NCBI GenBank assembly: GCA_964616645.1
Contig: CAZTUM010000003.1
Location: forward strand, 1 to 35,455
Source of the DNA: an uncultured Muribaculaceae bacterium
GTDB taxonomy: Bacteria; Bacillota_I; Bacilli_A; RF39; UBA660
DNA length: 35,455 nucleotides
Reading direction: 5' to 3'
Numbering within the stretch: position 1 is the stretch's first letter; each line of letters starts with the position of its first letter. The notes beneath the pieces were generated by a model. The model did no database searches. It saw nothing but the letters and a program-made list of their open reading frames with translations, and had not been told where the DNA came from. Shown piece after piece: positions 5,463 through 35,422 of this stretch. A program made the position numbers and the translations under genes.

Positions 5463-5498
5463 ATTTAACATATTTTATAAAATTTAACATATTTTATA
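5463..5498 (+). repeat. Two copies of the 17-bp direct repeat ATTTAACATATTTTATA (period 19 bp) upstream of the 5513 gene
   Basis: 5463-5479 and 5482-5498 are identical, ending 14 nt before the ATG and just before the GGAAGGTG RBS. Confidence 0.9.
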
Positions 5499-5512
5499 TT
5501 GGAAGGTGAATT

Positions 5513-5845: not shown

Positions 5846-5861
5846 CACTTAAGTGTTATTT

Positions 5862-6946: not shown

Positions 6947-6989
6947 ATAACTATTTTATCAAAAAAATACTTATTTGTCTATAAAATAA

Positions 6990-7028
6990 AAAATATACAT
7001 CAATAAAATAAGTTATGATGTATATTTT
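6990..7028 (-). terminator. Rho-independent terminator after the ClpX-like gene
   Basis: Perfect 13-bp inverted repeat, AAAATATACATCA (6990-7002) with TGATGTATATTTT (7016-7028). On the minus strand it is followed by T-rich sequence. Confidence 0.6.
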
Positions 7029-7039
7029 ATTATATCTAA

Positions 7040-8620: not shown

Positions 8621-8700
8621 AATATATCACCTGTAAGGAATATTATACTTGATAAAATAACTAAATTTGTTATACTTTACATTAATTTAACGGTATTATA

Positions 8701-9330: not shown

Positions 9331-9348
9331 ATTATCACCTCTATTTGA

Positions 9349-9377
9349 AGTATACCATATAATATGTAAAATGTCAA
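9349..9377 (-). promoter_or_regulatory. lexA promoter (TTGACA-17-TATACT on the minus strand)
   Basis: Minus strand reads TTGACA (complement of 9372-9377), a 17-nt spacer, then TATACT (complement of 9349-9354). The -35 overlaps LexA box 1. Confidence 0.6.
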
Positions 9378-9388
9378 ACTTTTGTTCG
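9375..9388. promoter_or_regulatory. LexA operator 1 (Gram-positive Cheo/SOS box)
   Basis: CAAACTTTTGTTCG differs from the consensus CGAAC-N4-GTTCG at one position. Confidence 0.7.
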
Positions 9389-9396
9389 AGAAAATA

Positions 9397-9425
9397 TTGA
9401 CACAAATATTTGTTCGTGTTATTAT
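9397..9425 (+). promoter_or_regulatory. Divergent sigma-A-type promoter (TTGACA-17-TATTAT)
   Basis: TTGACA at 9397-9402, a 17-nt spacer, TATTAT at 9420-9425. It drives the small ORF at 9452 and probably the SDR gene. Confidence 0.6.
9403..9416. promoter_or_regulatory. LexA operator 2 (weaker half-site match) inside the promoter spacer
   Basis: CAAATATTTGTTCG has a perfect GTTCG right arm and a degenerate left arm. It lies between the -35 and -10 of the + strand promoter. Confidence 0.45.
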
Positions 9426-9451
9426 TAAAATACATTGAAGGAGGTATATAT

Positions 9452-9586
9452 ATGAAAAAGAATAAAAATAGTAAAGGAGTTATATTTTTCTACATAATTT
9501 TATTATTATCAACATTTTTTTTATTAAATAATGATGATAAATACAAAGAAAAAGAACAAGAAACTTATTTGGTGTTTCAAAAATAG
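9452..9586 (+). CDS. 44-aa single-pass membrane peptide (not in the ORF track), candidate SOS-induced division inhibitor
   Basis: ATG at 9452 preceded by GAAGGAGG. Translation is MKKNKNSKGVIFFYIILLLSTFFLLNNDDKYKEKEQETYLVFQK, with stop TAG at 9584-9586. It has a basic N-terminus, one TM helix and a charged tail. It is divergent from lexA behind a LexA-boxed promoter. Confidence 0.5.
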   Translation: MKKNKNSKGVIFFYIILLLSTFFLLNNDDKYKEKEQETYLVFQK

Positions 9587-9629
9587 AAATATGTGGTATA
9601 CTATAAATAATAGAAAGAGGATTGATAGT

Positions 9630-10382
9630 ATGAAATGTTTAATAACAGGTGCTTCATCTGGGATAGGAAGAGATATGGCTAATTATATGAAATCTTTAGG
9701 ATATGATTTATTTTTAGTTTCAAAGGATAAGGATAAATTGGATTCTTCATTTAAAGAAGATAATATAACTAAAATACAATTAGATTTATCTAAAGAAGCA
9801 AATTGTTATAAATTATATGAAATGTTAAAAAATGAAAATATTGATATTTTAATAAATAATGCAGGGTTTGGGGATGCAGGGGAATTTATAGAAACAGATA
9901 TAGAAAAAGAATTAAATATGATAGATTTAAATATTAAAGCGTATCATATATTAACTAAATTATTTTTACAAGATTTTGTAAAAAGAGATTATGGTCATAT
10001 ATTAAATGTAGCATCTATAGCGGGATTTATGCCAGGACCTTTCATGGCGACTTATTATGCTACTAAGTCGTATGTTTTAAATTTATCATTAGCAATTAAT
10101 GAGGAATTAAAGCAATCTAAATCTAAAGTTAAAATATCTATATTATGTCCAGGGCCAGTGAAAACTAATTTTAATAAAGTAGCAAATGTAAAATTTAATA
10201 TAGGTCAAATTAGTAGTAAAAAATGTGCAAAATTAGCAATAGAGGGTATGTTTGAAAATAAATTAATAATTATTCCATCGACATCTATGAAAATAAATAG
10301 AGTACTAGTTAAGATACTTCCATTAAATGTAATAACTTACATTAATTCTAAAGTACAAAGAAAAAAGGTATATAAAAAGTAA
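9630..10382 (+). CDS. Short-chain dehydrogenase/reductase (classical SDR)
   Basis: Start set at ATG 9630 (RBS GAAAGAGG). TGASSGIG cofactor motif, NNAG, and the catalytic YxxxK within YYATK. Confidence 0.85.
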   Translation: MKCLITGASSGIGRDMANYMKSLGYDLFLVSKDKDKLDSSFKEDNITKIQLDLSKEANCYKLYEMLKNENIDILINNAGFGDAGEFIETDIEKELNMIDLNIKAYHILTKLFLQDFVKRDYGHILNVASIAGFMPGPFMATYYATKSYVLNLSLAINEELKQSKSKVKISILCPGPVKTNFNKVANVKFNIGQISSKKCAKLAIEGMFENKLIIIPSTSMKINRVLVKILPLNVITYINSKVQRKKVYKK

Positions 10383-10385
10383 GCA

Positions 10386-10417
10386 ATCTAATATATATCA
10401 TTAGATACTTACTTTTT
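10386..10417. terminator. Hairpin between convergent genes
   Basis: ATCTAAT (10386-10392) pairs with ATTAGAT (10400-10406) around a 7-nt loop, followed by ACTTACTTTTT. Confidence 0.4.
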
Positions 10418-10423
10418 ATATAT

Positions 10424-11686
10424 CTATTTAATTTTTCTTGCTTCTAAATAATATCTTTTATCATAGCTATGACCCATAGAGAAAGTTTTTCTAGGTAATG
10501 CACCATCTAAGATAACACTTTTGAATAAGTCTTCTTTTTTCATAGGAGGTAGTAGAATACCTAAATTATTATCATTGTTTGCTAATTGTCTTACAACGTC
10601 ATCTCCATGAATATAATCAATTCTTCCATTAAATTTATCTAAATATTCATCAATAAATATTTGAATAGAACCTACAGCTAAATTTGATTTAGGATTTTCT
10701 ATATAAATAGTTTTATTATACTTCTTACTTACAAATTCCATTTTTTGACCATTACCATCATAGTTAATATTATAATATTTATTTAATTCATCAATAAAAT
10801 TATCAACATCTATATCAAATAATACTCTATGAATAGGTTCAAATTCTAAAGCTTCACTATGAAGATTAACTACTTCTACTAAAGCATATCTTGCTTTATC
10901 TAGGATATTTTTATCTATCTTTTCTTGTTTTAATTTTTCATAACATGCTTTCGCAGTTGCTAAAGAGTGATTTCCATCTCCTACTGCAAATAATAATACT
11001 CCTTTATCCGTAACATTATATTTTTTATTAAAGTTATCAATATTGGCTAAGTTATCTAATTTATTCATAATATCATTAATGATACTTTCATTTAATTTAT
11101 AACCTTTAATATGCCCTCCGTTTTGCATAAGTGGGCAGTCATATACTATATCATTATCACTAACAACTTTATCTAAATTATCAATAATATTCTTATTTTC
11201 ATCATCAATTAATAACATAACATGAGGCAATTCTATTAAAGCATTATCTCTTACTTTCATTCTAGGGGGAATCCTAGAAGTAACGGTTTTTTCAGTAGCT
11301 CTAATCATTGTAGTAGAACCAATATTATAATCATAATCTTCTAAATCAATCATTCCAATAATACCTTTTCTACATTTACCATCTAAAGTTGTTCTTTCAA
11401 TATATAAAAGACTATTTTCTAATGTAGTAAAAACATCATCATTAAGATAATCCATCATTGTAGAGTTAATTAAATTAATTCTCTTATCAACATCTTCACT
11501 TTCTAAATATACTTCAGGTAATATAAGTTTTAAAGTAGATTTATCACTACCTACAAATCTTTCTACATTTTTCCAATAATTAGGTTCAGATGTATATTGG
11601 TCACATGCAACAACACACCATTTTTCCATATCAATATTTTTTGGTATTAAAATATCTGCTCTTTTAAATGTTTTCATAACACTCAT
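10424..11686 (-). CDS. DUF1015-family protein
   Basis: 420 aa. The N-terminal ADILIPKNIDMEKWCVVACDQYTSEP...LILPEVYLE and the later GDGNHSLATAK block resemble Firmicutes DUF1015 proteins as I recall them. Not verified by search. Confidence 0.55.
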   Translation of the reverse strand: MSVMKTFKRADILIPKNIDMEKWCVVACDQYTSEPNYWKNVERFVGSDKSTLKLILPEVYLESEDVDKRINLINSTMMDYLNDDVFTTLENSLLYIERTTLDGKCRKGIIGMIDLEDYDYNIGSTTMIRATEKTVTSRIPPRMKVRDNALIELPHVMLLIDDENKNIIDNLDKVVSDNDIVYDCPLMQNGGHIKGYKLNESIINDIMNKLDNLANIDNFNKKYNVTDKGVLLFAVGDGNHSLATAKACYEKLKQEKIDKNILDKARYALVEVVNLHSEALEFEPIHRVLFDIDVDNFIDELNKYYNINYDGNGQKMEFVSKKYNKTIYIENPKSNLAVGSIQIFIDEYLDKFNGRIDYIHGDDVVRQLANNDNNLGILLPPMKKEDLFKSVILDGALPRKTFSMGHSYDKRYYLEARKIK

Positions 11687-11779
11687 CCTTTCACTTTAAT
11701 TATTTTAACACTAATAGAAATATTTGCAATATTATTTAATAAAAAAATAAAAAAAGTATAAAACATATTCTATAATTAA

Positions 11780-11808
11780 TTGACATATATGAAAATTATA
11801 AGTATAAT
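11780..11808 (+). promoter_or_regulatory. Perfect consensus sigma-A promoter (TTGACA-17-TATAAT)
   Basis: TTGACA at 11780-11785, a 17-nt spacer, TATAAT at 11803-11808, 27 nt upstream of the ATG of the 1017-aa gene. Confidence 0.7.
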
Positions 11809-11835
11809 TAAATTATTAAGTATAGGAGCGATATT

Positions 11836-14800
11836 ATGAAAAATATAAAAATGAAAACTTGGTCTTTGATATTTAGTATTGTTACCGCGGGGATTTTAAT
11901 TTTATCAGGTACATATGCTTTATTTAAATGGACTTCTAGTGGAACAAATGTAGCAATTGATGCTCATTTAGGAGTAGTATATGAAAGAGAACATGAGACT
12001 TTAACTGGGACGTTAAATCCTACTAATAGTAAGGAAGGTGGACTAAGTACTAATATTACATTATGGACTACAACAAAGAAAACAAAAGTATATGGAACGT
12101 TATTCTTTTCTGTTAAAAGTATACCATCACCATTGAATACTAATAGTATGTTAAAATGGGAATTATGGAATGATAATACTAAAATTAGTAGTGGAGATTT
12201 TAATGGCTATGGAGAGGGGGATATAGTAGAACTTTTTAAAGATATAGAATTATCTAATGAAGAAGATATATTTACATTATATGTATGGTTAGATGATGAT
12301 TGTATAACTACAACAGATATAAAAGGTACTTCGATTGAGATAGATGTAGGAGCTTCAGCGGCACAAATACCAACTAGTGAAAGTTCAATTACTGTTGTAA
12401 ATAATTCACCTTCTCAAACTAATTGGGTAAAAAATTATACTTTATTATTAACCGCGACATCAACAGAATACAATATAACTGGATATGCAGTAACAACTTC
12501 TTCAGATACTCCATCAGCATATACGCAAATATCTAATGCAGGATTAACTTATAATTTGTCACATACAGTAGATGCAAATGGTAACTATTTTGTATGGTTT
12601 AGAAATCAAAATAATAAAATAGCTTATGAGGTTGTAGAAGTAAATAAAGTAGATAATATTAAACCTGTATTAAATAGAAATGGGGATTCTTCTGTTGATA
12701 TTGCTAATTCTAATGCTACGATTGTAATACCACTTAAAATAGTTGATACTCAAAGTGGTATTAATATAGATACATTTACTGATGATGATTTAATATTTAA
12801 AGTTGGAACTACTACTATAAGTCCAACTAAAAGTATTACTTATCAAAGTGTGAGTGATGGAGAATATTCATATTTATTAACTTTAAGTAATGTTACTGGG
12901 AATGGTAAATTAAATATAGAAGCTCCTTCTGGAGTAATAAGTGATACTGTAGGTAATACTAATATTTTAACTACAATTGACCCATTTATTGACATAGATA
13001 ATACTCCTCCAGTAGTCTCTTCTATAGAAGCTTCACAATATTCATCTACAATATCTATAAAAGCAACAGCTACAGATAGTTACGGAGTAGTAGATACTTA
13101 TTGGTATAGTATAGATGGGGAAAATTATTATAGTTCAAATAATTCTAATTATACATTTAATAATGTATCTAATGGTAGTTATACTGCTTATGTATATGTA
13201 AAAGATAAAGCGGGTAATACTTCAAATATAAAAGAACAAAGTGTAGTATTTGATAATGTACCACCTACATTAACATCTTTAAAAGTAACAACTTCTTCTG
13301 GTACATATGCATATGGTAGCGTAATTAATATAAGTGCAATATATAGTGAAAATGTTTTTGCAAGTGATGGAAAGGCAATAAATGCAAGTACTGCTCCAAC
13401 ATTATCATTAAAATTTGGAAATGGAACTTCAAAAAATGCTACATTTGTAAGTGTAAGTGATAATACTATAAATTATAAAGTAGTAGTAGATATTATAGAT
13501 TTAGGTGCTTTAACATTATCATCATATCAAGGTATAGTCTATGATCAAGCTTTAAATAGTTTAAATGTTACAGCAACAGAGTTAGGTGGTAATGCAGTTT
13601 CTGCATCTACAAAAGCAAAAATAGGTACAAATTACTATACAACATTAGCATCCGCGATCGCGGTATCAAGTACAACTAAAAGTATTACTATGGTAAATGA
13701 TACAACAGAGTGTGTAACAATACCAAGTACAAATAATATAACGTTAGATTTATATGGTAAGGTAATAACTTGTGATACATCAAATACATCTGCAATAACT
13801 AATAATGGAATACTTAAAGTAGTATCTAGTCAAACAAATGGTGAAATAAATAGTACATATTATGCAATAAATAATCTAGGTAGTTTAATTCTTACAAGTG
13901 GTAAAATTCAATCTACAAATAATGTTGCAGTATATAATAATTCAACAAAAACTCAAGCTAATGGAGTATCATTATATGTAGATGGTGCTACAGTAATTTC
14001 AACTTCTAATAGTGGAATAAATAACGTAACAACAGGTATAGTTACTGTTGCATCAGGAACCGTAAAAGGGGCATTAGGTGGTATATATAATACAACTACT
14101 GGTACTATAAATATTGGTTTATCTACAGATACACTAAGTACTACTAATCCAGCTGTTTATAATACTACTACATCATCATATGGTGTATATATGAATTCAT
14201 CTGGTACATTAAATTTATATAATGGGGCCATATATACTGCAAATACTAGTGTAGGAACAGCATACTTTAAAAATACATCTACTGTAACTGCAAGAAGTGG
14301 TTATCATATTACAACTGCTACAGATACATTAGGAGGAGTAACTTATAAAAAATCATATTTGGTAAGTGGAACAACTCAAATTCAATATAGAAAAGGTACA
14401 AGATACTGTGAATCATATACATGTTCTGGTACAAAGCAATCTTCAGAAACATCATCTTGTGTATATTCTTCTCCAGGAAGTGGTTGGACAAAACAAAGTG
14501 GAAGTTGTGCTTCTAAAACAGTTATATCAGGGACTTGTCAATGTGCAGGGGGGTCTGTAGCTAAGACAGATTGTGAAAAAGCGGGATTTAAAAGTGATAC
14601 CGATTGCTTTATTTGGTGTACAGGAGAAATGGGAGGTTCAACAGGTGAAGGTTGTACATCAACTAAATCTTATGCATATTACTATACTAAAACAATAACT
14701 GAATCTTATGAAAATACTGGTCAATCTAGTTGTAATTCAAGTGAAACTGCTACTTGTGAATCATATGATGTAGATTATGGTTCTTGGGGTACAACAGATT

Positions 14801-14889
14801 ATAGTAGTTATACATATTGTCAAAAAAGGACTTGTAATTTATCTTCTGAAGGTGTAGTAACAACGTGTGGTTCTGCTGGAAGTTGTTAG
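11836..14889 (+). CDS. Giant secreted/cell-surface protein (signal-anchor, Ig-like modules, beta-helix-like Thr/Asn repeats, Cys-rich tail)
   Basis: 1017 aa with RBS TAGGAGCG. The N-terminal hydrophobic segment ends in SGTYALFKW, which resembles the TasA/camelysin SipW-type signal motif GGGT-x-A-x-F. Modules are delimited by DNIKP, DNTPPVV and DNVPPTL. Aa ~590-830 consist of short repeats rich in T/N/G/S, typical of parallel beta-helix adhesins. The last 160 aa (14407-14886) hold 16 Cys. Confidence 0.8.
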   Translation: MKNIKMKTWSLIFSIVTAGILILSGTYALFKWTSSGTNVAIDAHLGVVYEREHETLTGTLNPTNSKEGGLSTNITLWTTTKKTKVYGTLFFSVKSIPSPLNTNSMLKWELWNDNTKISSGDFNGYGEGDIVELFKDIELSNEEDIFTLYVWLDDDCITTTDIKGTSIEIDVGASAAQIPTSESSITVVNNSPSQTNWVKNYTLLLTATSTEYNITGYAVTTSSDTPSAYTQISNAGLTYNLSHTVDANGNYFVWFRNQNNKIAYEVVEVNKVDNIKPVLNRNGDSSVDIANSNATIVIPLKIVDTQSGINIDTFTDDDLIFKVGTTTISPTKSITYQSVSDGEYSYLLTLSNVTGNGKLNIEAPSGVISDTVGNTNILTTIDPFIDIDNTPPVVSSIEASQYSSTISIKATATDSYGVVDTYWYSIDGENYYSSNNSNYTFNNVSNGSYTAYVYVKDKAGNTSNIKEQSVVFDNVPPTLTSLKVTTSSGTYAYGSVINISAIYSENVFASDGKAINASTAPTLSLKFGNGTSKNATFVSVSDNTINYKVVVDIIDLGALTLSSYQGIVYDQALNSLNVTATELGGNAVSASTKAKIGTNYYTTLASAIAVSSTTKSITMVNDTTECVTIPSTNNITLDLYGKVITCDTSNTSAITNNGILKVVSSQTNGEINSTYYAINNLGSLILTSGKIQSTNNVAVYNNSTKTQANGVSLYVDGATVISTSNSGINNVTTGIVTVASGTVKGALGGIYNTTTGTINIGLSTDTLSTTNPAVYNTTTSSYGVYMNSSGTLNLYNGAIYTANTSVGTAYFKNTSTVTARSGYHITTATDTLGGVTYKKSYLVSGTTQIQYRKGTRYCESYTCSGTKQSSETSSCVYSSPGSGWTKQSGSCASKTVISGTCQCAGGSVAKTDCEKAGFKSDTDCFIWCTGEMGGSTGEGCTSTKSYAYYYTKTITESYENTGQSSCNSSETATCESYDVDYGSWGTTDYSSYTYCQKRTCNLSSEGVVTTCGSAGSC
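13652..13663. repeat. Perfect 12-bp GC palindrome CCGCGATCGCGG inside the giant gene
   Basis: Read directly. It encodes S-A-I-A within LASAIAVSS and is the densest GC patch in the window. Confidence 0.95.
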
Positions 14890-14899
14890 GAGGCGTATT

Positions 14900-15625
14900 A
14901 TGAAAAATATATTTAATAAAGATAATTATAAATTACTTTTAATACTTCTAGTGTTGGTAATTGGGGCGATATTAATTATCGTCCTAATGAATACTGATAA
15001 GGATGATGATGGACCTATAACAGATTATAATGATGAAATTGCTAATGTAATACCATCTGAAGTAGAAAAATTATATAGAATAATTACTAATAATACTTGT
15101 AATGTTAATTATGGTTTTGATTTTACAGATACTAATAGTATTAAAGTAGAAGATATGGATGATGAAATAATTTTAACTATTATATTTAATAATTTAAAGG
15201 AGAATAATATTCTTAATTCTAAATTTAGTAAAGAAGAATATATTACTTATGCTTCTAATATATTAGGTACTAATATAGATATACCTAATGATTTTAGTAA
15301 TTTTAATTATGATGGTAATGTTTATAAAATAGAGAATAATAATATTATAAAAGATACTTCAATATGTCAAAATGAAGTTAATTATAAGAGTGTTTTATAT
15401 AGTTATTCATATAACTCTAATGATTTGAGTGTATATGTAAATTATATTATGATAAAAGATAATATAGCATATAACTTAGATGGTAGTATAATTGGTAATT
15501 ATTCTAAGGAAAAAGAAGAGTCTATTATGAATAGCGCTACTAGTTATGTATATAATTTTAAAAAGAATATTAATGGTTATTATTTAACTGAGGTATCTAA
15601 AGCTCTAGTTGAGATTAATAAATAA
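14900..15625 (+). CDS. Membrane-anchored hypothetical protein (241 aa)
   Basis: Start set at ATG 14900. Its RBS TAGGAGG overlaps the stop of the upstream gene. One N-terminal TM helix (LLLILLVLVIGAILIIVLM) followed by an extracytoplasmic domain with no recognisable family. Confidence 0.6.
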   Translation: MKNIFNKDNYKLLLILLVLVIGAILIIVLMNTDKDDDGPITDYNDEIANVIPSEVEKLYRIITNNTCNVNYGFDFTDTNSIKVEDMDDEIILTIIFNNLKENNILNSKFSKEEYITYASNILGTNIDIPNDFSNFNYDGNVYKIENNNIIKDTSICQNEVNYKSVLYSYSYNSNDLSVYVNYIMIKDNIAYNLDGSIIGNYSKEKEESIMNSATSYVYNFKKNINGYYLTEVSKALVEINK

Positions 15626-16825: not shown

Positions 16826-18058
16826 TTAAAAATTTAATGTTCCAATATAGAAATGATTATTGTTACTTTTTAATAAAATTGTTTTATTATTTAGAACATA
16901 AAAAGTTGGATATATATATTCATCTTTATATTCGCCTATTAATTGTACACTGTAAAATTTATTTTCATTGGGATTATATATGCTCCATTTTTCTAAATTA
17001 TGAAATAACATATTATCATTAAGAAATGGTGTTCTTCCGTAAAGTACATTAGAATCTGTTTCTTGTATTTTATTTGTAATAAAATTATAGTATGTTGTTT
17101 TCCCAGTTTGACTAATTTGTGTGTTGATTTTTCCAATATACAATCCTTTGTTATTTTTTTGAAAACTTGTTATAATCCAATCTTCTTTTAGGTTATTTGA
17201 AAATATAATAGATTCTTCATTATTTTTTAAATCAATTGATAGGATATCTTGTTTATTTTTATAATCTGTAGTACAAATTAACATTTCATTTTCAAAAACT
17301 TGAATTTCAAATATGCTACATAACATTGTCCCACTTTGATTTAGAACATCTCCATTATATTCTTTTAATGTAGTAATTTTTTCATCTTCTATTTGATATA
17401 TATTTAATGTTTGTTTTCTTTCTATTATTATATCATTAATAGATTTAAATTTATCATTTATAGTTACTACATACAATTTATTATTTGTATTTGAATAATG
17501 AAATATAGGAGTAGATATTGGGTCAAGTAATGTCCCTTCTTTTAAAATTTTACCATTATTTAATGTATTTTCAAATTTTATTATTGACCAATTATAACTT
17601 ATATTATCTAAAGGATTTTTAAATATTAATGATGCATATATTGTATTATCTAATATAAAATAGTTTAATATTCTATAATTTGAATCAAAATTGTAAATTT
17701 CAAATTTATCTTGTTCAAAGTCATATTTAAAAATATATTTTGTAACAAATAAATCATTATTGTTTGATGTATCAATTATATCACCGTATATATAATTTTG
17801 ATTTACTTTATTTATGGATACTTCATAAGTGTCTTTTAGGTACTTTTTAAGTTTATTATTTAAGCTGCTATCTGTTAAAGTAATGGTGTATGAAGTAGTG
17901 GAATTTTTTTCTATTTTGCTTTCTATAATATCTGTTTTAGTATTATTGGTTTCTAAATTGTTATTATAAATTTTTGTAAAAAATAATGATATAAGAACAA
18001 ATAATATCAAGAAACACATAAAAAATATGTCTCTTGAATTAAAATTTAATTTTTTCAT
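16826..18058 (-). CDS. Membrane-anchored 410-aa protein with a repetitive beta-rich ectodomain (beta-propeller-like, unassigned)
   Basis: N-terminal TM helix (FFMCFLILFVLISLFF). After it come recurring hydrophobic-strand plus Asn/Asp-turn units such as NNKLYVV, NEMLICTTDY, NKGLYIGKIN, NDNMLFHN, NNKTILLKSNNNHFYIG. The ATG lies 2 nt after the stop of the upstream gene and has no SD of its own, which suggests translational coupling. Confidence 0.7.
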   Translation of the reverse strand: MKKLNFNSRDIFFMCFLILFVLISLFFTKIYNNNLETNNTKTDIIESKIEKNSTTSYTITLTDSSLNNKLKKYLKDTYEVSINKVNQNYIYGDIIDTSNNNDLFVTKYIFKYDFEQDKFEIYNFDSNYRILNYFILDNTIYASLIFKNPLDNISYNWSIIKFENTLNNGKILKEGTLLDPISTPIFHYSNTNNKLYVVTINDKFKSINDIIIERKQTLNIYQIEDEKITTLKEYNGDVLNQSGTMLCSIFEIQVFENEMLICTTDYKNKQDILSIDLKNNEESIIFSNNLKEDWIITSFQKNNKGLYIGKINTQISQTGKTTYYNFITNKIQETDSNVLYGRTPFLNDNMLFHNLEKWSIYNPNENKFYSVQLIGEYKDEYIYPTFYVLNNKTILLKSNNNHFYIGTLNF

Positions 18059-18060
18059 AA

Positions 18061-18840
18061 TTATTGAATAATATATCTATTTGATGAACTAACTGTGTTA
18101 TATACATTAGTTGCTGTATCCATATGTTCTCCTAATACACTTCCATTACCATAACTACCATACCAAGTATCAACATAATATATATAATTAATACCTGTGC
18201 TATCTCCAAATGCTGCAGTATATGTGTATCCATTAACAGTTAAGTAGTGTCCTAACATTGTTCCATTATACATTGCTAAAGAACTTGTATTAGCATGTAA
18301 AATAATTGGTTTGTTTGAACTAATTCTATTTTTTACTAAAGTAGAAAATGTAGATGAAGTGTAATTTGAGCCTAAAACATAACTGTAGTTTTGTGATGTG
18401 TAATTATTAAGTGCATTTTTTATTGCATATACGTATGTTCCATTTGTAGAATTTGTTCCCATATAGCTAGCATATGTTGATTGACTAGATGATGTTCCAT
18501 TTAAATATTGAACTACTTGTTTAACGTTTGCGGGTCCACAATAGTAGCTATTTTCTTGTTGATAATTTGTTATAGATAGTTTTGAGACAAAATATCTTGG
18601 TTGAATTACATTTTTACTTAATGATTCCAATTCATCATCAATTTTTAATAAATATTCATTAGTAAATAATGTCCCATTTGAGCAAGTAATGTCTAAATCA
18701 TTTGGGTCTGTATTTTTTATAATGTAATCATATTCTTCATTGGTATAAATTTCACAGTTATTATTTGTATCTGCTAAAACTGATTTTGAAAATGCGAGTA
18801 CACAAATTATAGAAAATATAAGTAATTTTTTTAAATTCAT
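18061..18840 (-). CDS. Secreted papain-fold cysteine peptidase (C39-like)
   Basis: Start set at ATG 18840, behind the strong RBS AAAGGAGGA. Signal peptide MNLKKLLIFSIICVLAFSKSVLA. Q-x5-C pattern QQENSYYCGPA (oxyanion Gln plus catalytic Cys), followed by GHYLTVNGY (His) and YYVDTW (Asp), spaced as in C39-type peptidases. Confidence 0.65.
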   Translation of the reverse strand: MNLKKLLIFSIICVLAFSKSVLADTNNNCEIYTNEEYDYIIKNTDPNDLDITCSNGTLFTNEYLLKIDDELESLSKNVIQPRYFVSKLSITNYQQENSYYCGPANVKQVVQYLNGTSSSQSTYASYMGTNSTNGTYVYAIKNALNNYTSQNYSYVLGSNYTSSTFSTLVKNRISSNKPIILHANTSSLAMYNGTMLGHYLTVNGYTYTAAFGDSTGINYIYYVDTWYGSYGNGSVLGEHMDTATNVYNTVSSSNRYIIQ

Positions 18841-18950
18841 AAAATTCCTCCTTTTAAAAAGTAAGTACTTACAATTGTAATTATACATTTTATAATAAAA
18901 AAAACTACCCATTATTAGTAGAAAAAACTCTTCTTTTGGTGGAATATATT

Positions 18951-19583
18951 CTATTTGCAAGTAAATTCGTTTTTTTGTTCCATTCCAATTTTATCTGAAT
19001 GGATTATATTAATTAATTCTGAATTTTCAAAGATTATATTTGGAGTTTCTGATATATATGATTTATTTATGTTAAATGTGAATTCATAATTTTCTCCTAT
19101 TTTTAAATCTTTAGATATTGTTTTTGGTAATTTAATTGTGTAGATGCCTTCTACTTGGTATTCTTTAAATGTTACATACAAGTAATTTTCATCATTACTT
19201 GAATTTATATTACTTATATTATAAGTTTTTATTAGTATGCAATCATAGTTGTTAATATTATTATCTTTAGTTTTTTGAGTGATGGTAAAAAATATTATTA
19301 AAATTGTTAGTAAACCAATACTAATTATTATTGGTATTACAATTATTTTCTTTTTTATGTGGTAAATTTTCTTTTTATCTTTTCCATCTAATAATTCTTC
19401 TATTGAAATTTCTAATATTTCACATAATTTTTTTAAAATTGATATATCTGGGATTGAATTTCCACATTCCCATTTGGAAACAGCTTTAAAGCTAACTCCT
19501 ACAAGCTCTCCAAGTGTTTGCTGAGTTAATCCTTTTTCTTTTCTTTTTCTTTTGATATATTCTCCAATTTTTTGATTATTCAT
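18951..19583 (-). CDS. Membrane-anchored XRE-family HTH regulator with a small extracytoplasmic domain
   Basis: Start set at ATG 19583 (RBS GGAGTGA). HTH_3-type LTQQTLGELVGVSFKAVSKWECGNSIPDISILKKLCEILEISIEELL. A TM helix IIVIPIIISIGLLTILIIFF follows, then ~100 aa of beta-rich ectodomain with Cys near each end. Confidence 0.8.
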   Translation of the reverse strand: MNNQKIGEYIKRKRKEKGLTQQTLGELVGVSFKAVSKWECGNSIPDISILKKLCEILEISIEELLDGKDKKKIYHIKKKIIVIPIIISIGLLTILIIFFTITQKTKDNNINNYDCILIKTYNISNINSSNDENYLYVTFKEYQVEGIYTIKLPKTISKDLKIGENYEFTFNINKSYISETPNIIFENSELINIIHSDKIGMEQKNEFTCK

Positions 19584-19765
19584 GTATATCACTCCAATAC
19601 TACAAACTTTTGTTATATATTTATTATACATTATTTTTTTTGATAATATTAAAAAAAATTACGCATATAATATTTTACTGAAATTTGATAAGAATATTGA
19701 AGGTTTATATTTTTACTAAAAAATGGATAATGTTTTAAAAAGATAATTTCTAAGTGTTAAACTTG

Positions 19766-22189: not shown

Positions 22190-23602
22190 ATGAAGATAGG
22201 GAAATATTATAAAGAAGAATTTATAAATAATTATAAATTATTTAAAGATAAGAAGACGAGAAAAAGTCAAATACCAAATATATTAACATTATCAAGATTA
22301 TTTTCTCCTGTAATAATTATTCCATTGGTATTATGTAGAGAGTATTTACTTGCTTTAATATTTGTAATAATATTTGCTTTAACAGATCTTTTGGATGGAT
22401 ATATAGCTAGAAAATTTAATTATGTTAGTAAATTGGGAAAAGAAATTGACCCTATATGTGATAAAATATTTCTAGGTAGTTTACTTATTCCACTTATTAT
22501 GAAGTGTCATTTCTTGTTATTAAGTATATTTTTAGAATTAATAATAAGTATTATCTCTATTATAAATAAGATTAAAGGGTATAATACTAAAGTTAATGGG
22601 TTTGGTAAAGTTAAAACAGCATTTATTTATACTTTGATTAGTTATACATATTTATCTTTATTTATAAGTATTAATGATATATTATTTATAATTATATATA
22701 TTATTACTACAATATTACAAATATGTACTATTATTACTTATTTAAAGAGAACTATAATTAAAGAAAAAGAAGATAATATTGTTATAAGTAGTTTTGGTTA
22801 TAAATTAATAAAACCAATATTTAAAATATTATTTAATTCTTATTTTAGACCAAAAGTAATTGGGAAAGAAAATATTCCTGCTGAAGGGGCGTTTATATTA
22901 TGTGGGAATCATACTAATGTTCATGACCAATTTCCTATTATGATGAATACGAAAAGGGTTATTCATTATATTGCTAAAAAAGAGTATTTTGATTCAAAGA
23001 TGGGATTTTTCTTTCGTTTTGTAGGGCAAATACCTGTAGATAGAGAGATAAAGGATGCTAATGCTAAAAATGAAGCGTTGGAGGTATTAAAAAATAATCA
23101 TGCTTTAGGTATATTTCCAGAAGGTACAAGGAATGTTTTAGTATATAAACAAGATGAGGTTAACAAATTATATGAATATGTAAAAGATAAGATTTCTAAA
23201 AACCAATTTATTGATATACTTAAAAATAATCAGACTAAATTATCTCAAATACATCTTTTAGATAAATTAAAAAGTGAAAAAAGAATAACTAATATGGATT
23301 ATTCAGAATATTTACTTGATTTACCAAATAAGTTAAAAACTCTTTTTGAAGAGAATAAAATAACAGAAGAAGAGTATAGAGATTCATATTTATTAGAGTT
23401 TAAATATGGTGCAGTGTCATTAGCAAGTAAAACAAATACTAAAATATTACCATATGCCACATGTGGCACATATGCTCATCATAGTAAAAACTTGCAAGTA
23501 GTAATTGGTACTCCTTTTAAAATAGATGGTTTATCACTTGATTGTGCAAATAAAATGTTAAGAGATAAAATTATAGATATTATTATAGAAAATAGCAAAT
23601 AA
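22190..23602 (+). CDS. Fusion protein: CDP-alcohol phosphatidyltransferase domain plus PlsC-type acyltransferase domain
   Basis: The N-terminal membrane domain carries a perfect D-x2-DG-x2-AR-x8-G-x3-D-x3-D motif (DLLDGYIARKFNYVSKLGKEIDPICD, 22385-22462). The C-terminal domain has HX4D HTNVHD (22910-22927) and FPEGTRN. About 88 aa are inserted before FKYGAVSLA, compared with the upstream stand-alone PlsC. Confidence 0.75.
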   Translation: MKIGKYYKEEFINNYKLFKDKKTRKSQIPNILTLSRLFSPVIIIPLVLCREYLLALIFVIIFALTDLLDGYIARKFNYVSKLGKEIDPICDKIFLGSLLIPLIMKCHFLLLSIFLELIISIISIINKIKGYNTKVNGFGKVKTAFIYTLISYTYLSLFISINDILFIIIYIITTILQICTIITYLKRTIIKEKEDNIVISSFGYKLIKPIFKILFNSYFRPKVIGKENIPAEGAFILCGNHTNVHDQFPIMMNTKRVIHYIAKKEYFDSKMGFFFRFVGQIPVDREIKDANAKNEALEVLKNNHALGIFPEGTRNVLVYKQDEVNKLYEYVKDKISKNQFIDILKNNQTKLSQIHLLDKLKSEKRITNMDYSEYLLDLPNKLKTLFEENKITEEEYRDSYLLEFKYGAVSLASKTNTKILPYATCGTYAHHSKNLQVVIGTPFKIDGLSLDCANKMLRDKIIDIIIENSK

Positions 23603-23617
23603 CTCTTTGCTTTTTTT
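23594..23617 (+). terminator. Rho-independent terminator of the lipid operon
   Basis: AGCAAA (23594-23599) pairs with TTTGCT (23606-23611) around a 6-nt loop, followed by a T-run of seven. The stem spans the stop codon. Confidence 0.6.
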
Positions 23618-23657
23618 ATATATGTATGGTAGAATATAGACTATAGGAGAGTGTAAG

Positions 23658-25589
23658 ATGAGAAAGAAAAATGGCTTTACTTTAATAGAGTTATTAGCAA
23701 CATTACTAATTATTTGTCTTATAACTACTATTGCAGTTATAACAATCAAAGATAATATAGAAAATACAAAGGATAAAGCGCAAAAACTTACTCAAAATGC
23801 TCTTTTTCAAGCTTCAAGTGCTTATGTAGCAGAATATAAAACAAATAGTACAGATTGGTATACAGAGTATACTGAAGAAGATGATGCATATAAAGAAACT
23901 GGTAATGAATATGCTTGTACTACAATTCAAATGTTAATTGATAAGGGATACTTAAAAAATAATATAATAGATGCAAAGACAAATGAAAGAATAAACCATA
24001 ATACTCAAATACAAATAATAAGAAATAAAACTACTAAAGTAATTTTTAAAAAAGTTATAATGTCTAGTCAAGTATGCAAAGAATTAGATAGTGTAATTCC
24101 TAGTGTAACGTTTACTCCAGATGGTAGTAATTTGGTGTATAAACCAACAGTAACAATAACATCAATAACAGGTGAGTCTAATGTTAAATCTATGGCTTAT
24201 TATATAAAAAAAGATAATAATAAATATCAAGAGGTTACTACTACTTCTTATTTAGGGGAAATAACTATAGAAGAAATAGATGGAGAAAGTATTAGAGTAT
24301 GTGCTAATGTAACAAATGGTATTGATGTAAGTAGTGGAGAGGTATGTAGTAATTATTTTAATGTTGATAATACTCCTCCAAAAATAGATAAAATAGAGAA
24401 TGTTAATGGTTCTAATATTGTTAATGTAACAGTAATAGAAAAAAATATTGATAGTTATTGTTTAACAAAAGAAAATAATATTAATAATTGTATATGGGTA
24501 AATATTACTTCTAATATATTTAATATAAATGTAGAAGAAGAGGGAGATTATTATATATATATAAAAGATAAAGTAAATTTAATTAGTAATGATGAAAATA
24601 ATAAAGTAAGTATATCTATAGATAAGGATATACCTTCAGTTATATTTACTCCTAATGGGACTGATATATGGAGTAAAAGTATAGACGTAAAGTTAACCAA
24701 AATTACAGGCACATCGGGAATTAAAAATACAAATTATTATATTAAAAAAGATAATATTAAATATAGGGAAAATACTAGTACAACTACAGATGATGAAATA
24801 ATTACAGTAGATGTAGAAGGTAGTAATATATATGTTTGTGCAGTAGTAGAAAATAAAATAGGTATAACAAGTGGAGAGATATGTAGTAATATATATAAAA
24901 TAGATAATACTCCACCTAAAGTAGAATTATCTTCTTTAAATTTTTCTGGGGAAATACAGATAGATGTAATTGAAGATAATATTGATAGTTATTGTATAAC
25001 AAAAGATAATGATACTGATAATTGTACATGGATAGAAACTTCTGAAAATAATTTTAATACTACTGTTACAGAAGAGGGGACATATAATGCATATGTTAAA
25101 GATAAGGCTAATAATATAGGGACTTCTTCTATAAATATTATACTAGAAAAGACTATAACTGTAGATTGTAGTGTATCTAATACAAATGGTGTTTGTACAA
25201 TATCAGAAAATATAGATGATATAGGAGAAATTAGTAGTATTACTACTTCAAATGGTGTTATAAGCTATAGTTTAAATGAAAAGACTATAACATTAACTTT
25301 TAAACAAGGTATTTATACTCAAGGTACGGCGTTGGAATGTAATTGTACTACTACTGTTACAGAAGAATGTACATGTGGGCAAAGATGTTGTACTCCTCAA
25401 GGGGGAGGGTCAGGAGGCTCTTCATATTGCGAAAGTGGAGGTGGAGGTAGTAGTTGTTTAGTTTGTTATGATGTTTCCTGTGTTTCGGGGTTATGTGATT
25501 ATAATGAGTGTAAAGAGAAAAAAACAACTACTTGTAATACATGCTATACATATCAATATCAAGCTACAATAAAATATAAACCAGAATAG
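23658..25589 (+). CDS. Giant modular type IV pilin-like protein (prepilin-type N-terminal cleavage/methylation signal)
   Basis: MRKKNG/FTLIELLATLLIICLITTIAVI is a canonical class III signal: Gly-1, Phe+1, Glu+5, then a hydrophobic alpha-1 helix. The protein is 643 aa, with a pilin-like head (~aa 30-140), two tandem ~178-aa two-domain units and a Cys/Gly-rich tail (14 Cys in aa 561-629, nt 25338-25544). RBS TAGGAGAG. A -10-like TAGAAT preceded by TGG lies upstream. Confidence 0.8.
   Translation: MRKKNGFTLIELLATLLIICLITTIAVITIKDNIENTKDKAQKLTQNALFQASSAYVAEYKTNSTDWYTEYTEEDDAYKETGNEYACTTIQMLIDKGYLKNNIIDAKTNERINHNTQIQIIRNKTTKVIFKKVIMSSQVCKELDSVIPSVTFTPDGSNLVYKPTVTITSITGESNVKSMAYYIKKDNNKYQEVTTTSYLGEITIEEIDGESIRVCANVTNGIDVSSGEVCSNYFNVDNTPPKIDKIENVNGSNIVNVTVIEKNIDSYCLTKENNINNCIWVNITSNIFNINVEEEGDYYIYIKDKVNLISNDENNKVSISIDKDIPSVIFTPNGTDIWSKSIDVKLTKITGTSGIKNTNYYIKKDNIKYRENTSTTTDDEIITVDVEGSNIYVCAVVENKIGITSGEICSNIYKIDNTPPKVELSSLNFSGEIQIDVIEDNIDSYCITKDNDTDNCTWIETSENNFNTTVTEEGTYNAYVKDKANNIGTSSINIILEKTITVDCSVSNTNGVCTISENIDDIGEISSITTSNGVISYSLNEKTITLTFKQGIYTQGTALECNCTTTVTEECTCGQRCCTPQGGGSGGSSYCESGGGGSSCLVCYDVSCVSGLCDYNECKEKKTTTCNTCYTYQYQATIKYKPE
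24087..25142 (+). repeat. Intragenic tandem duplication (two ~178-aa units) within the pilin-like gene
   Basis: Unit 1 begins DSVIPSVTFTPDGS, unit 2 begins DKDIPSVIFTPNGT. They align throughout: YYIKKDN, VCA.V.N.I...SGE.CSN....DNTPPK, NIDSYC.TK.N...NC.W, EEG.Y..Y.KDK.N. Confidence 0.8.
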
Positions 25590-25602: not shown

Positions 25603-25998
25603 ATGAAAAGTAATTCAAAAATTAGTTTATTTGCTATATCTTTTTCGATATTGGCATTATTATCAACAATATGTTTATACTATTTTATGATAAATAAGTA
25701 TAATGCTTTAAATGACAAAATAAATGAATTAAATCAAAATAATTCTTCAAATACACCAGTAAATATATCTTTAGTATTAAATGAATTTGCTAAGAAGTTG
25801 ATTAATGATAAAATAATTACTAAAGATAAAGCTATAAGTAATGAAATTATAATTACTTTTAATGAAATGAAAAATCAATATGGACTTGATGTTAGTTTTG
25901 ATTGTGTAGAAGAAGATACATATATAAAATATATATTTATGGAAGATACAGAACAAGTAAAAGATACTATAATAGGGCAAAATTGTTATGAAAAGTAA
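25603..25998 (+). CDS. Membrane-anchored small protein (131 aa), paralog of the next gene
   Basis: RBS AGAGGG and an N-terminal TM helix. The C-terminal ~70 aa align with the 97-aa lipoprotein (KLIND..IT...AI..E, conserved Cys pair, TII...C). Confidence 0.55.
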   Translation: MKSNSKISLFAISFSILALLSTICLYYFMINKYNALNDKINELNQNNSSNTPVNISLVLNEFAKKLINDKIITKDKAISNEIIITFNEMKNQYGLDVSFDCVEEDTYIKYIFMEDTEQVKDTIIGQNCYEK

Positions 25999-26281
25999 GT
26001 TAATACTAGTAATATTAATTATTATATTAACTGGATGTAATAATGTATTAGATAATGATGATGATATAAATACATATATATATAAATTAATAAATGATTC
26101 AAAAATTACAATACAAGAAGCTATAAATAGTGAAGTTAATTTAACATTAAATGATTTAATAAATAAATATAATTATATTTATACAGGAAATTGTGATAAA
26201 GATAAATCAACGATAAAAATTGTTTTTGATGATACAGGTAAAGTGATACAAACAATAATAGATTTAAGTTGTAATAAATAA
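25988..26281 (+). CDS. Small lipoprotein (97 aa), paralog of the previous gene
   Basis: Lipobox ILTGC. Overlaps the previous gene by 11 nt. Shares the KLINDSKITIQEAINSE ... C ... TIIDLSC pattern with it. Confidence 0.55.
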   Translation: MKSKLILVILIIILTGCNNVLDNDDDINTYIYKLINDSKITIQEAINSEVNLTLNDLINKYNYIYTGNCDKDKSTIKIVFDDTGKVIQTIIDLSCNK

Positions 26282-26297
26282 TTTTAATTAGAATTAA

Positions 26298-26326
26298 TTG
26301 ACAAATTAATATAAAAATATTATGAT
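26298..26326 (+). promoter_or_regulatory. Near-consensus sigma-A promoter (TTGACA-17-TATGAT)
   Basis: TTGACA at 26298-26303, a 17-nt spacer, TATGAT at 26321-26326, upstream of the 26350 gene. Confidence 0.65.
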
Positions 26327-26826: not shown

Positions 26827-26868
26827 TAAATCCTAATGGACTTACTATTTTTTTCTAGGAAGGAGTAT

Positions 26869-27558
26869 ATGAATAATAGTTTTAAAAATTTACCTAATGA
26901 AGAAAAGCCACGTGAAAGATTAAAAAAATATGGAAGAGATAATTTGTCTAATGAAGAATTACTTGCAATTGTATTAAAGACAGGTACTCATGATATACCA
27001 GTAGATGAACTGGCTAAAAATCTTTTAGTAGAATTAGGTAGTATTACTAAATTAAAGGATGTTTCACTAGCTAAATTATTAAGTATAAAAGGTATAGGAG
27101 AGGTAAAGGCGTTAACTTTATATGCCATGATTGAACTGGGAAAGAGAATATATAAAAATGTAAATCTTACTAAAAGGTATAAACTTAGTAATCCAGAAGA
27201 TATAATTAATTATTATAATGATACATTAATAGATAAAAAGCAAGAAGAATTTCATGTGTTATATTTAGATAGTAATAATAATATTATTACTACAAAAAGA
27301 TTATTTATAGGTACAATTAATCGTTCGATAGTTCATCCAAGAGAGATATTTAAAGAAGCGTATTTAAATTCTGCTTGTAAAATAGTATGTATTCATAATC
27401 ATCCTACTGGTAATATAACACCTAGTAAAGAGGATATATTTATAACAAGAACTATTGATGAAATAGGGAGAATTCATGATATAAAATTATTAGACCATTT
27501 AATTATTGGGAAAGATAGCTATTTTAGTTTTTATGAGAATAAATATTTAAAAAATTAA
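26869..27558 (+). CDS. radC: RadC-family JAB/MPN-domain protein
   Basis: Start set at ATG 26869 (RBS GGAAGGAG). N-terminal PRERL..G...LS..ELLAI.L.TG, helix-hairpin-helix IKGIGEVKA, and the JAMM motif HNHPTGNITPSKED. Confidence 0.9.
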   Translation: MNNSFKNLPNEEKPRERLKKYGRDNLSNEELLAIVLKTGTHDIPVDELAKNLLVELGSITKLKDVSLAKLLSIKGIGEVKALTLYAMIELGKRIYKNVNLTKRYKLSNPEDIINYYNDTLIDKKQEEFHVLYLDSNNNIITTKRLFIGTINRSIVHPREIFKEAYLNSACKIVCIHNHPTGNITPSKEDIFITRTIDEIGRIHDIKLLDHLIIGKDSYFSFYENKYLKN

Positions 27559-34915: not shown

Positions 34916-34939
34916 TGAATGTAGATGAGGAGAAGTATT

Positions 34940-35422
34940 ATGAAAGAGGATATAAATAATTATTATATGGATATTGCATGTTTAGAAAAAGAAAAATCAA
35001 CATGTGTAAGAAGAGGAGTAGGTGCTGTAATAGTTAAAAATAATATGATTATTGGAAGAGGGTATAATCATACTGTTAAAGGAAGTATACCATGTACAGA
35101 AGATACTTGTATTAGGAAAAAAAATAATATTGTAAGTGGTACTAGACAAGAATATTGTATGGCAATACATGCAGAACAATCTGCGATTATAGATGCTTAT
35201 AGAAATGGTTATACTACAGAAAATAGTACTATGTATATAACAGATTCACCTTGTGTTATATGTGCTAGATTGATATGTGAATTTGGTATAACAAAAGTTT
35301 ATTACAAAGATAGTTATCCAGATGAATTGTCTTTTAAAATTTTAAGTAATGCAAGTATTGATACTTACAAGATTGATAATTATAAAGTAAAGAAAAAAAG
35401 TAAAAAGATGGATGTGATATAG
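34940..35422 (+). CDS. comEB: Deoxycytidylate (dCMP) deaminase, ComEB-type
   Basis: Start set at ATG 34940 (RBS GAGGAG). Zinc motifs HAEQSAI and PCVICARLI. The N-terminal YYMDIA...S.C.RR.VGAVIVK is typical of the family. Confidence 0.88.
   Translation: MKEDINNYYMDIACLEKEKSTCVRRGVGAVIVKNNMIIGRGYNHTVKGSIPCTEDTCIRKKNNIVSGTRQEYCMAIHAEQSAIIDAYRNGYTTENSTMYITDSPCVICARLICEFGITKVYYKDSYPDELSFKILSNASIDTYKIDNYKVKKKSKKMDVI

Follow-up and report, generated by a model that had tools for sequence, protein, structure and literature searches.

Why should a bacterium encode, alone among housekeeping genes, a very large protein that begins like a type IV prepilin? This question is raised by a stretch of 35,455 bases of an uncultured bacterium (contig CAZTUM010000003.1, positions 1 to 35,455; 24% G+C; hereafter the window), in which an open reading frame (ORF) at 23658-25589 on the forward strand, complete from its ATG start to its stop codon, encodes a 643-residue protein with the N-terminus MRKKNG/FTLIELL. 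Our answer is that the protein is probably a modular minor type IV pilin, carried on a filament whose machinery is encoded elsewhere, and that its Cys-rich end would be adhesive. Its association with a filament is what we infer from the features described below.

The N-terminus, described in an earlier note on this DNA as an unambiguous prepilin peptidase substrate, scored 26.8 bits with PF07963 (N_methyl; cutoff 21.2) and 26.2 bits with TIGR02532 (cutoff 16.3), and both matches, being above the curated cutoffs, bear that description out. The leader is basic, has six residues with Gly at -1 and is followed by Phe at +1, in agreement with the short charged leader, Gly(-1) and Phe/Met(+1) of type IV pilins (IPR012902). 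The mature N-terminus, FTLIELLATLLIICLITTIAVITI, forms a hydrophobic helix, alpha1N, and carries Glu at +5 (Glu11 of the precursor), as expected of a type IV pilin, in which this helix has some 20 residues. N_methyl is the only family that Pfam recognises in the protein. Moreover, residues 1-142 are the equivalent of a complete small pilin and are followed by non-pilus domains, the arrangement of a modular pilin in the sense of Raynaud et al. 2021 (PMC8179133). In comparison, the ComGC, ComGD, ComGE and ComGF equivalogs of NCBIfam gave 15-24 bits against cutoffs of 49-80 (best scores ComGC 23.9, ComGE 23.3 and ComGD 17.1 bits), with neither comGA nor comGB in the vicinity. The pseudopilins of type II secretion systems gave 24.4 bits (GspH, cutoff 80) and 16.1 bits (GspG, cutoff 88.85), and the alignment was confined to the N-terminal helix. 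The features of Flp/Tad (type IVc) pilins, namely G/XXXXEY, a very small size and a tad locus, are not those of this protein, which has Leu rather than Tyr at +6 and 643 residues, and no tad genes occur in the 35-kb window. A sortase-type LPXTG motif with a terminal hydrophobic segment was not found either, and the C-terminus reads ...CYTYQYQATIKYKPE.

Beyond the signal, the protein had been divided from its sequence into a pilin-like head, a duplicated two-domain unit and a Cys/Gly-rich end, and the internal repeat, the AlphaFold2 (AF2) model and the Cys/Gly count all agree with this division. Residues ~143-308 align with residues 322-486 at 49% identity over 166 residues (E 4e-51). The full-length AF2 model, with a predicted local distance difference test (pLDDT) score of 73.5, shows the N-terminal helix and a small alpha/beta head, four beta-sandwiches at residues 149-494 (pLDDT 80-93) within a stalk of ~360 residues (143-497), and a fifth small beta-domain at 498-555 that is closed by the last strand (630-640). 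Structure prediction and a Foldseek comparison of the modules had been proposed as a check; run against the PDB, Foldseek matched the stalk to tandem immunoglobulin (Ig)/FN3 chains, namely GhpA (E 1.4e-10), SiiE and fibronectin, and the stalk modules are thus tandem Ig/FN3-like. Between the fifth domain and the last strand, the 73 residues 557-629 hold 14 Cys and 11 Gly. Every other extracytoplasmic domain holds exactly one Cys pair (87/140, 215/230, 268/278, 394/409, 446/456 and 504/513). For the head, an AF2 model built from 43 family heads reached a pLDDT of 88.4 with a pilin-like topology, in which a 52-residue helix (9-60) is followed by strands at 68-74, 77-89, 117-123 and 129-135. The head profile matched solved type IV pilins through alpha1 only (Geobacter PilA-N, 3.6e-10; PilA 8tj2, 3.6e-7; S. 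sanguinis PilE1, 2.5e-6). Profile similarity limited to alpha1 is usual for pilins.

The head belongs to a large family. A word-indexed search returned a 94% identical variant (P0001), a 53% identical orthologue (P0002) and a small number of distantly related, large N_methyl proteins, and an exhaustive search over 1.84 billion representatives gave 550 proteins at E<=1e-3. Among the best 150 of these 550 matches, about 120 have the whole head, a lower bound counted on representatives at 50% clustering. Nineteen of these ~120 members are shorter than 200 residues, and complete pilins of 124-145 residues end right past the second conserved Cys (for example P0040, P0052, P0069, P0087 and P0088, and further P0120, P0123, P0139 and P0160). 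At least 81 members at 50% clustering have 450 residues or more, with a maximum of 1,307. These large members, which at 450-1300 residues make up most of the family, carry variable Ig-like stalks and Cys-rich tails: 57 of the 81 have at least eight Cys in their last 130 residues, where the median Cys content is 7.7% versus 2.2% mid-protein. The family heads have the signature EYxCTTIxxLINKGYLK...IKIxRNxxTKV...C, the cleavage triplet GFT is present in 114 of 120 members, and Thr8, Glu11 (+5), Glu59, Cys87 and Gly97 are invariant in the 43-sequence alignment; Cys87 and Cys140 form the invariant Cys pair of the head, and the heads are otherwise just 30-40% identical. The closest relatives also have the terminal Y.Y..TI.Y strand in common. 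The next-closest one, P0020, has a single A-B unit and a longer Cys-rich insert, so stalk length and tip vary within the family. In addition, the Ig-like modules occur in non-pilin proteins of 1,000-2,300 residues and behind other pilin heads. All recovered loci have 19-33% G+C, and their source is mostly gut-metagenome samples. A cluster of small head-only pilins, represented by the 143-residue pilin of locus L008, occurs on 668 contigs and includes NCBI CDE96182.1, annotated as prepilin-type. One short member, P0033 (166 residues; L006 281-2001), is the 5' piece of a large member split by a frameshift or assembly error, since the next ORF continues with Ig-like and Cys-rich parts.

We found no literature on this specific head family. 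Modular pilins as a class are widely distributed, comprising over 1,200 proteins in 264 architectures and multi-domain cases of up to 860 residues, and Raynaud et al. 2021 predicted many more with modules that lack a database signature (PMC8179133). The 643-residue protein fits this prediction because Pfam sees only N_methyl. The modules of the family are unrecognised by current domain databases, and it is a sizeable unannotated family within the known class of modular type IV pilins. That the protein would be a larger and differently built example is therefore no distinction, as known modular pilins reach 860 residues and the same head is found on proteins of up to 1,307.

Divergence and selection were consistent with an exposed, functional protein. 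A genome-collection scan with the whole protein gave no match, and a later scan with six close heads gave four loci, the closest of which, from a Hadza metagenome-assembled genome of an 'uncultured Bacilli bacterium', is syntenic with the window; the orthologue lies in the same syntenic slot on contigs of 149 kb and 281 kb. Between the window and the Hadza locus, the pilins are only 53% identical, whereas neighbouring proteins are 78-99% identical (RadC 82, MreC 81, AMP-binding enzyme 83, DUF4352 78, L21 91 and L27 99) and a 1017-residue surface protein is 65% identical. The differences are evenly distributed along the pilin, and its faster divergence than its neighbours is as expected of an exposed surface protein. 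Against the 94% variant P0001, the ratio of nonsynonymous to synonymous substitution rates (dN/dS) is 0.19 for the whole gene, calculated from 86 substitutions and indicating purifying selection, compared with 0.13 for the upstream gene. By region, the head has a value of 0.19, the stalk 0.33-0.44 and the C-terminal module the lowest, 0.06, while the leader and alpha1N show no nonsynonymous change. The counts are small, yet the pilin gene is plainly functional, with the strongest constraint on the alpha1N helix and the tip.

The gene had been presented as an orphan modular pilin. It is an orphan within 35 kb, but it is not special in this respect: in model species the genes for T4aP are dispersed, and minor pilins specific to a system are not needed for assembly and are spread along the filaments (PMC10191384), so an orphan pilin is not anomalous. 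In every locus inspected, large and small members lie away from assembly-gene operons, the large ones among housekeeping genes. Since the small head-only members are orphans too, orphan status is a trait of the whole family. A metagenome scan gave six loci, none with machinery, and tblastn with the T2SSE and T2SSF seeds from L008 gave no match outside L008, either in the window or in the other loci. For example, P0009 adjoins radC among housekeeping genes, and P0022 (L018) lies among lipid-metabolism and housekeeping genes with a secreted thioredoxin-fold/CcdA-like protein immediately upstream. In that locus, a thioredoxin gene and then a gene for a 408-residue protein that combines a signal peptide with a CPHC thioredoxin-like domain and a multi-transmembrane CcdA/DsbD-like part (8425-9905) precede the pilin gene (10001-11926). 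These genes may provide dedicated disulfide handling for the Cys-rich pilin; the window showed no recognisable equivalent of them. In a second lineage (L005, L011, L020, L022, L023 and L025; 22-25% G+C), one or two large pilin genes are enclosed by ftsK on one side and, on the other, a purine nucleoside phosphorylase gene, after which come two M16 peptidases. Its prepilins have 560-620 residues. Behind each come one to three small N-terminally anchored ORFs of 126-171 residues (for example, L020 1446-6610), which have no Pfam match and form a different family from the small ORFs beside the pilin in the window.

The small members gave two further observations. In L014, the gene order is smpB, the small head-only pilin P0040, a membrane protein and gyrB/parE. 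The membrane protein (1446-2783, directly 3' of P0040) has 445 residues, multiple transmembrane segments and a soluble C-terminal part. By eye the protein resembles membrane proteins of the GT-C/oligosaccharyltransferase kind, which raises the possibility of pilin glycosylation. In L008, the order is a Tad-type cluster, yebC, a small ORF (63 residues), a 143-residue GFTLIE-type pilin and lepA. The cluster (4375-10432) encodes two TadE-like proteins, TadZ/CpaE, a TadA/CpaF ATPase, TadB and TadC, with no obvious Flp pilin, an arrangement that recalls the TANB77 pilus cluster (PMC11680825). This pilin, about 1 kb from the cluster, is the only informative small-member locus, most others being on contigs of 0.5-4 kb, and as a hint of the machinery it is suggestive only. 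The organism is not close to the lineage of the window, because its LepA is 71% identical.

In the reading that we favour, the 643-residue protein would be inserted into the membrane through alpha1N, and its leader would be removed and Phe1 methylated by a prepilin peptidase encoded elsewhere. Polymerisation of the head via alpha1N would then build it into a type IV filament, of the Com or the T4P type, and the genes for the machinery and the major pilin of this filament would likewise lie elsewhere. Because of its bulk, the protein would probably be placed at or near the tip, or at low abundance along the filament. The rigid Ig stalk, predicted to be roughly 15-20 nm long, would keep the Cys-rich terminal module off the filament, and this module would act as the ligand-binding (adhesive) end; that it is the binding end is probable. 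Two small membrane-anchored partners may help in folding, disulfide or metal loading, or presentation. In filaments, Glu5 serves to dock a subunit under the subunit above, and only the capping subunit is without it (PMC10191384). This docking role, together with the near-invariance of Glu5 in the family, argues for assembly and not for mere anchoring, and the presence of Glu5 suggests that the protein is not the very cap.

Several results weigh against this reading. No assembly ATPase, platform protein or prepilin peptidase (A24) was found in the 35-kb window by Pfam and NCBIfam, with ORF 9531-10382 not scanned, and in a six-frame scan of the 35,455 bases the prepilin motif occurs once, so that no second prepilin N-terminus is present; these searches agree with the earlier note that the window holds neither machinery nor another pilin. 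Assembly genes were also absent within +/-10 kb of the large members in ~10 independent loci. Since the ComG and GspH scores are far below the equivalog cutoffs, the filament type is not assignable. Furthermore, the Foldseek comparison of the head model with the PDB was not significant, the top match being full-length PAK pilin (E 0.27, TM-score 0.38). The AF2 model has a pLDDT below 50 at residues 552-630 and leaves the insert effectively unmodelled; with such low confidence there, the case for an adhesive knob is made by position, constraint and analogy. Finally, the dN/dS values come from few substitutions.

The pilin gene is accompanied by two small genes, whose products form a family of ~100-130 residues: membrane-anchored or lipoprotein paralogues with a ~70-residue two-Cys domain, always directly 3' of this pilin subfamily. 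Homologues of the first partner lie directly 3' of the pilin gene in L002 (133 residues, 42% identity), L017 (123 residues) and L026, and in L017 the partner is kept although the upstream gene differs; the partner homologues are located at L002 11949-12675, L017 2830-3201 and L026 2808-3203. The second partner is 37% identical to the first over 70 residues (E 5e-9) and 59% identical to a 111-residue ORF of L002. Pfam recognised no family in either the 131- or the 97-residue protein. Their derivation from degenerate pilin heads was rejected (HHalign probability 20%). The dN/dS of the partner ORFs against the 94% variant is ~1.1, a value from just 12 substitutions.

A transcription unit of its own had been claimed for the pilin, and this claim is plausible for its 5' boundary. 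The upstream hairpin, the TGnTAnAAT element and the ribosome-binding site are retained in L002, where the pilin is only 53% identical, and 54 of 55 positions are identical in the 94% variant; because of this conservation, the boundary, as read from the sequence, is plausible. The hairpin and the stop codon of the CDP-alcohol phosphatidyltransferase/acyltransferase gene upstream overlap, and a generic terminator scan, for which the G+C content of the hairpin is too low, did not pick it up. The -10-like element has counterparts in L002 (TGATAAAAT) and L026 (TGATAGAAT). No convincing -35 element was found upstream of the pilin gene, and promoter-like sites in this AT-rich region are no commoner than in shuffles, so it is conservation that speaks for the -10-like element. 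The unit, however, is not that of the pilin alone. The 131-residue ORF begins 13 nt past the pilin stop codon with its own ribosome-binding site, the 97-residue ORF overlaps it, and both are probably co-transcribed with the pilin. No terminator-like structure was found downstream of the 97-residue ORF, and for the next gene, which encodes a DUF4352 lipoprotein, there is a separate good promoter-like site (26298-26326). The coordinates are collected in Table 1.

Table 1. Features of the pilin locus and of the related module in the window, with the evidence for each
Feature	Position	Strand	Evidence
643-residue modular prepilin gene	23658..25589	+	ORF, HMM (hidden Markov model) matches, dN/dS 0.19 vs 94% variant
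Class III signal (whole)	23658..23771	+	PF07963, TIGR02532
Class III signal: leader MRKKNG	23658-23675	+
Class III signal: alpha1N helix	23676-23771	+
Globular pilin head, residues 39-142 (rest of alpha1, 4-stranded antiparallel sheet, Cys87/Cys140)	23772..24083	+	AF2, homology to small pilins
Stalk: two tandem A-B pairs of Ig-like beta-sandwich domains	24084..25148	+	Repeat, AF2, Foldseek
Ig-like domain A1	24084-24371	+
Ig-like domain B1	24372-24620	+
Ig-like domain A2	24621-24908	+
Ig-like domain B2	24909-25148	+
C-terminal module: small beta-domain (498-556 and terminal strand 630-643) with Cys/Gly-rich insert between	25149..25586	+	AF2
Cys/Gly-rich insert, residues 557-629, 14 Cys	25326-25544	+	Residue count
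Terminator-like hairpin AGCAAA/TTTGCT with T7 run	23594..23617	+	Fold -8.6 kcal/mol, z -2.8; conserved in L002, L026
Extended -10-like element TGGTAGAAT, pattern TGnTAnAAT	23627..23635	+	Sequence reading, conservation
Ribosome-binding site TAGGAGAG, 6 nt ahead of ATG	23644..23651	+	Identical in L002
Partner ORF 1: 131 residues, N-terminal transmembrane anchor, ~70-residue extracytoplasmic domain with 2 Cys	25603..25998	+
Partner ORF 2: 97-residue lipoprotein, lipobox LTGC, paralogue of partner ORF 1	25988..26281	+
B-type Ig-like module in the 1017-residue neighbour (ORF 11836-14889), residues 388-471	12997..13248	+	B-module HMM

The strongest alternative, which we regard as possible though unlikely, is a surface adhesin anchored by its pilin signal outside any filament, the class III signal being processed or merely inserted. 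Here alpha1N would be a permanent membrane anchor, the four-Ig stalk would cross the wall and the Cys-rich module would lie at the surface, as in a bindosome-like or pseudopilus-stub use, with the small co-encoded membrane proteins as dedicated partners of the adhesin. Much of the genomic setting agrees with this: in all loci inspected the large members lie among housekeeping genes with assembly genes absent nearby, the large pilins are regularly followed by small N-terminally anchored ORFs, one to three in number, which fall into two or more unrelated sequence families, and at some loci two large-pilin genes stand in tandem. However, an orphan location is typical of true minor pilins too. A passenger of ~500 residues would be hard to pack into the body of a filament, but the characterised modular pilins PilB, PilC and CofB are filament subunits. 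The B-type module also occurs in a neighbouring protein whose N-terminal signal differs, so that the modules are generic surface-display parts; the head, on the other hand, is the same as that of stand-alone small pilins without a passenger, and Glu+5 and Phe+1, unnecessary for a simple anchor, are nearly invariant. Extended to the family, the idea would be that the giant Cys-tailed pilins as a group serve filament-independent, pilin-signal-based surface display with small anchored partners, in which the head would serve as anchor or as a short stub, the Ig stalk would span the wall as a spacer and the Cys-rich tip would bind the ligand. We find this generalisation rather doubtful.

A second alternative, that the N-terminus is a pilin look-alike, the uncleaved signal-anchor of a Sec-inserted protein whose motif is a relic after loss of the machinery, appears very unlikely. 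The machinery was not seen in any accessible sequence, that is, in the window and the loci of relatives, and a reduced genome is possible in organisms of this kind (RF39, cited in PMC12306168). As a relic the motif would erode, yet GFT...E is maintained in 114 of 120 representatives whose heads are otherwise 30-40% identical, which argues that the motif is not a relic, and alpha1N carries no nonsynonymous change between close variants. Moreover, other uncultured gut lineages with reduced genomes are reported with type IV or Tad pili and competence genes (PMC12306168, PMC11680825), and a Tad-type cluster is found 1 kb from one family member. That the reading frame is no gene at all, but a chance ORF or decaying pseudogene in AT-rich DNA, has only the low G+C content (24%) in its favour and next to no probability in view of its 643 codons with a ribosome-binding site, full-length collinear orthologues in other samples (94% and 53% identity), a dN/dS of 0.19 and a confidently predicted domain structure.

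Apart from the pilin and three small anchored proteins, the window encodes LeuRS, ApbE, a NusG-II domain protein, a heptaprenyl diphosphate synthase component I-like protein, RodA/FtsW, ZnuA, a ClpX-like AAA protein, LexA, DUF1015, the 1017-residue surface protein, a polysaccharide deacetylase, a C39-like peptidase, a helix-turn-helix (HTH) regulator, acyltransferases, an AMP-binding enzyme, a CDP-alcohol phosphatidyltransferase, RadC, MreC, MreD, M23 and M50 peptidases, L21, Prp, L27, RecD2 and a dCMP deaminase. A prophage or mobile-element origin was rejected, as syntenic housekeeping genes flank the locus in the orthologous contig. The neighbouring giant protein, said in the earlier note to have modules in common with the pilin, has one of them: its B-type module (DNTPP...KDKAxN) was found by hmmsearch at 19.7 bits (independent E-value 4e-8), whereas 200 shuffles gave no more than 5.3 bits, and weak Pfam matches to Big_13, Big_3_2 and Y_Y_Y coincide with its position. 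A weaker copy lies at residues 205-266 (nt 12448-12633). The A-type module is not common to the two proteins, and a homology of their Cys-rich tails was rejected, no similarity being detected.

This 1017-residue protein (11836-14889, forward strand) combines Ig-like modules with a Cys-rich C-terminus of ~160 residues and is followed by a transmembrane-anchored 252-residue protein (14867-15625). As it is just 65% identical in the syntenic L002, it evolves fast like the pilin. Its N-terminus, '...ILILSGTYALFKWTS', resembles SipW/TasA-type signals. TIGR04088, the model for the SipW type, did not match it, and a relative with the same motif (P0108) gave 17.3 bits against a cutoff of 19; another 'STYALF' protein lies near a large pilin in L018 (14163-14642). 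On the reverse strand of the window, a trio of genes at 16826-19631 encodes an HTH (XRE-type) regulator with a C-terminal transmembrane segment and extracellular part (226 residues), a secreted C39-like peptidase domain protein (299 residues) and an unannotated anchored protein (410 residues); it is absent from the orthologous locus L002. The dCMP deaminase (34925-35422) scored 92 bits on the ComEB equivalog (cutoff 219) and also matches an anti-phage dCTP deaminase model. Because neither comEA nor comEC adjoins it in the window or in L002, it is not evidence of a competence locus. In the window, the pilin and three small genes are followed by radC (26836-27558), mreC and mreD, and in L004 radC (9263-9943) is directly upstream of a pilin; the two pilins belong to divergent subfamilies, and their position beside radC may reflect only a permissive slot at a conserved gene block.

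Among known systems, PilB (vWA) and PilC (lectin) of S. sanguinis resemble the 643-residue protein in their monoderm host, class III signal, short N-terminal pilin module, bulky C-terminal non-pilin module or modules for adhesion and expected tip or low-abundance location (PMC8179133, PMC10191384). There is no sequence similarity past the alpha1 helix, however, the passenger here being four Ig-like domains and a Cys-rich module instead of one vWA or lectin domain. The genes for PilB and PilC also lie inside the pil locus with the machinery, whereas this gene stands alone among housekeeping genes with a conserved small membrane partner. The catalogue of Raynaud et al. 2021 contains proteins with the IPR012902/PF07963 motif and several domains, such as an 860-residue Candidatus Falkowbacteria protein with 12 repeats; the family described here differs in its head family, its modules, its 19-33% GC and its Cys-rich C-termini. 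CofB and TcpB likewise carry, behind a pilin module, beta-rich domains on a linker and act at the filament tip as initiator and adaptor, but they belong to diderm T4b systems, are encoded in an operon and show no detected homology to the protein. The ComGC, ComGD, ComGE and ComGF pilins of Bacilli also have the short leader and G/FTLxE motif, and their models gave weak NCBIfam scores; compared with them, the protein is 4-5 times larger, lies outside a comG operon and scores far below the equivalog cutoffs. The Com pilus is described in PMC7212644 as the most widespread type IV filament of monoderms. The AF2 stalk superposes on the tandem beta-sandwich chains of Salmonella SiiE and Aureispira GhpA (Foldseek E 1e-10 to 3e-8), a likeness that is structural only (10-16% identity), and these proteins are secreted and anchored by different routes and lack a pilin head. 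Finally, the 'pilin-like' proteins of the TANB77 Tad cluster (Kim et al. 2024) are also surface proteins of an uncultured gut clade, the order TANB77, the two sets being likened by description; they have 143-236 residues, lie inside the Tad cluster and were annotated by topology, whereas the protein studied here has the GFTLIE motif and no adjacent machinery.

The TANB77 pilin-like proteins are reported to activate dendritic cells in a TLR4-dependent manner and to influence the response to immunotherapy (PMC11680825), which makes the exposed pilins of uncultured commensals of practical interest. For low-GC gut bacteria that are uncultured and known from metagenomes only, the present family offers a concrete candidate adhesin for attachment to host, mucus or partner cells, one that evolves fast, is subject to purifying selection and bears a Cys-rich tip under strong constraint. 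With it, the catalogue of modular pilins comes to include modules unseen by current domain databases. If the filament-independent reading were true, a bacterial class III signal would be used for surface display without a pilus, which would be the more notable result, as it would also be if the Cys-rich tip were a new type of ligand-binding module.

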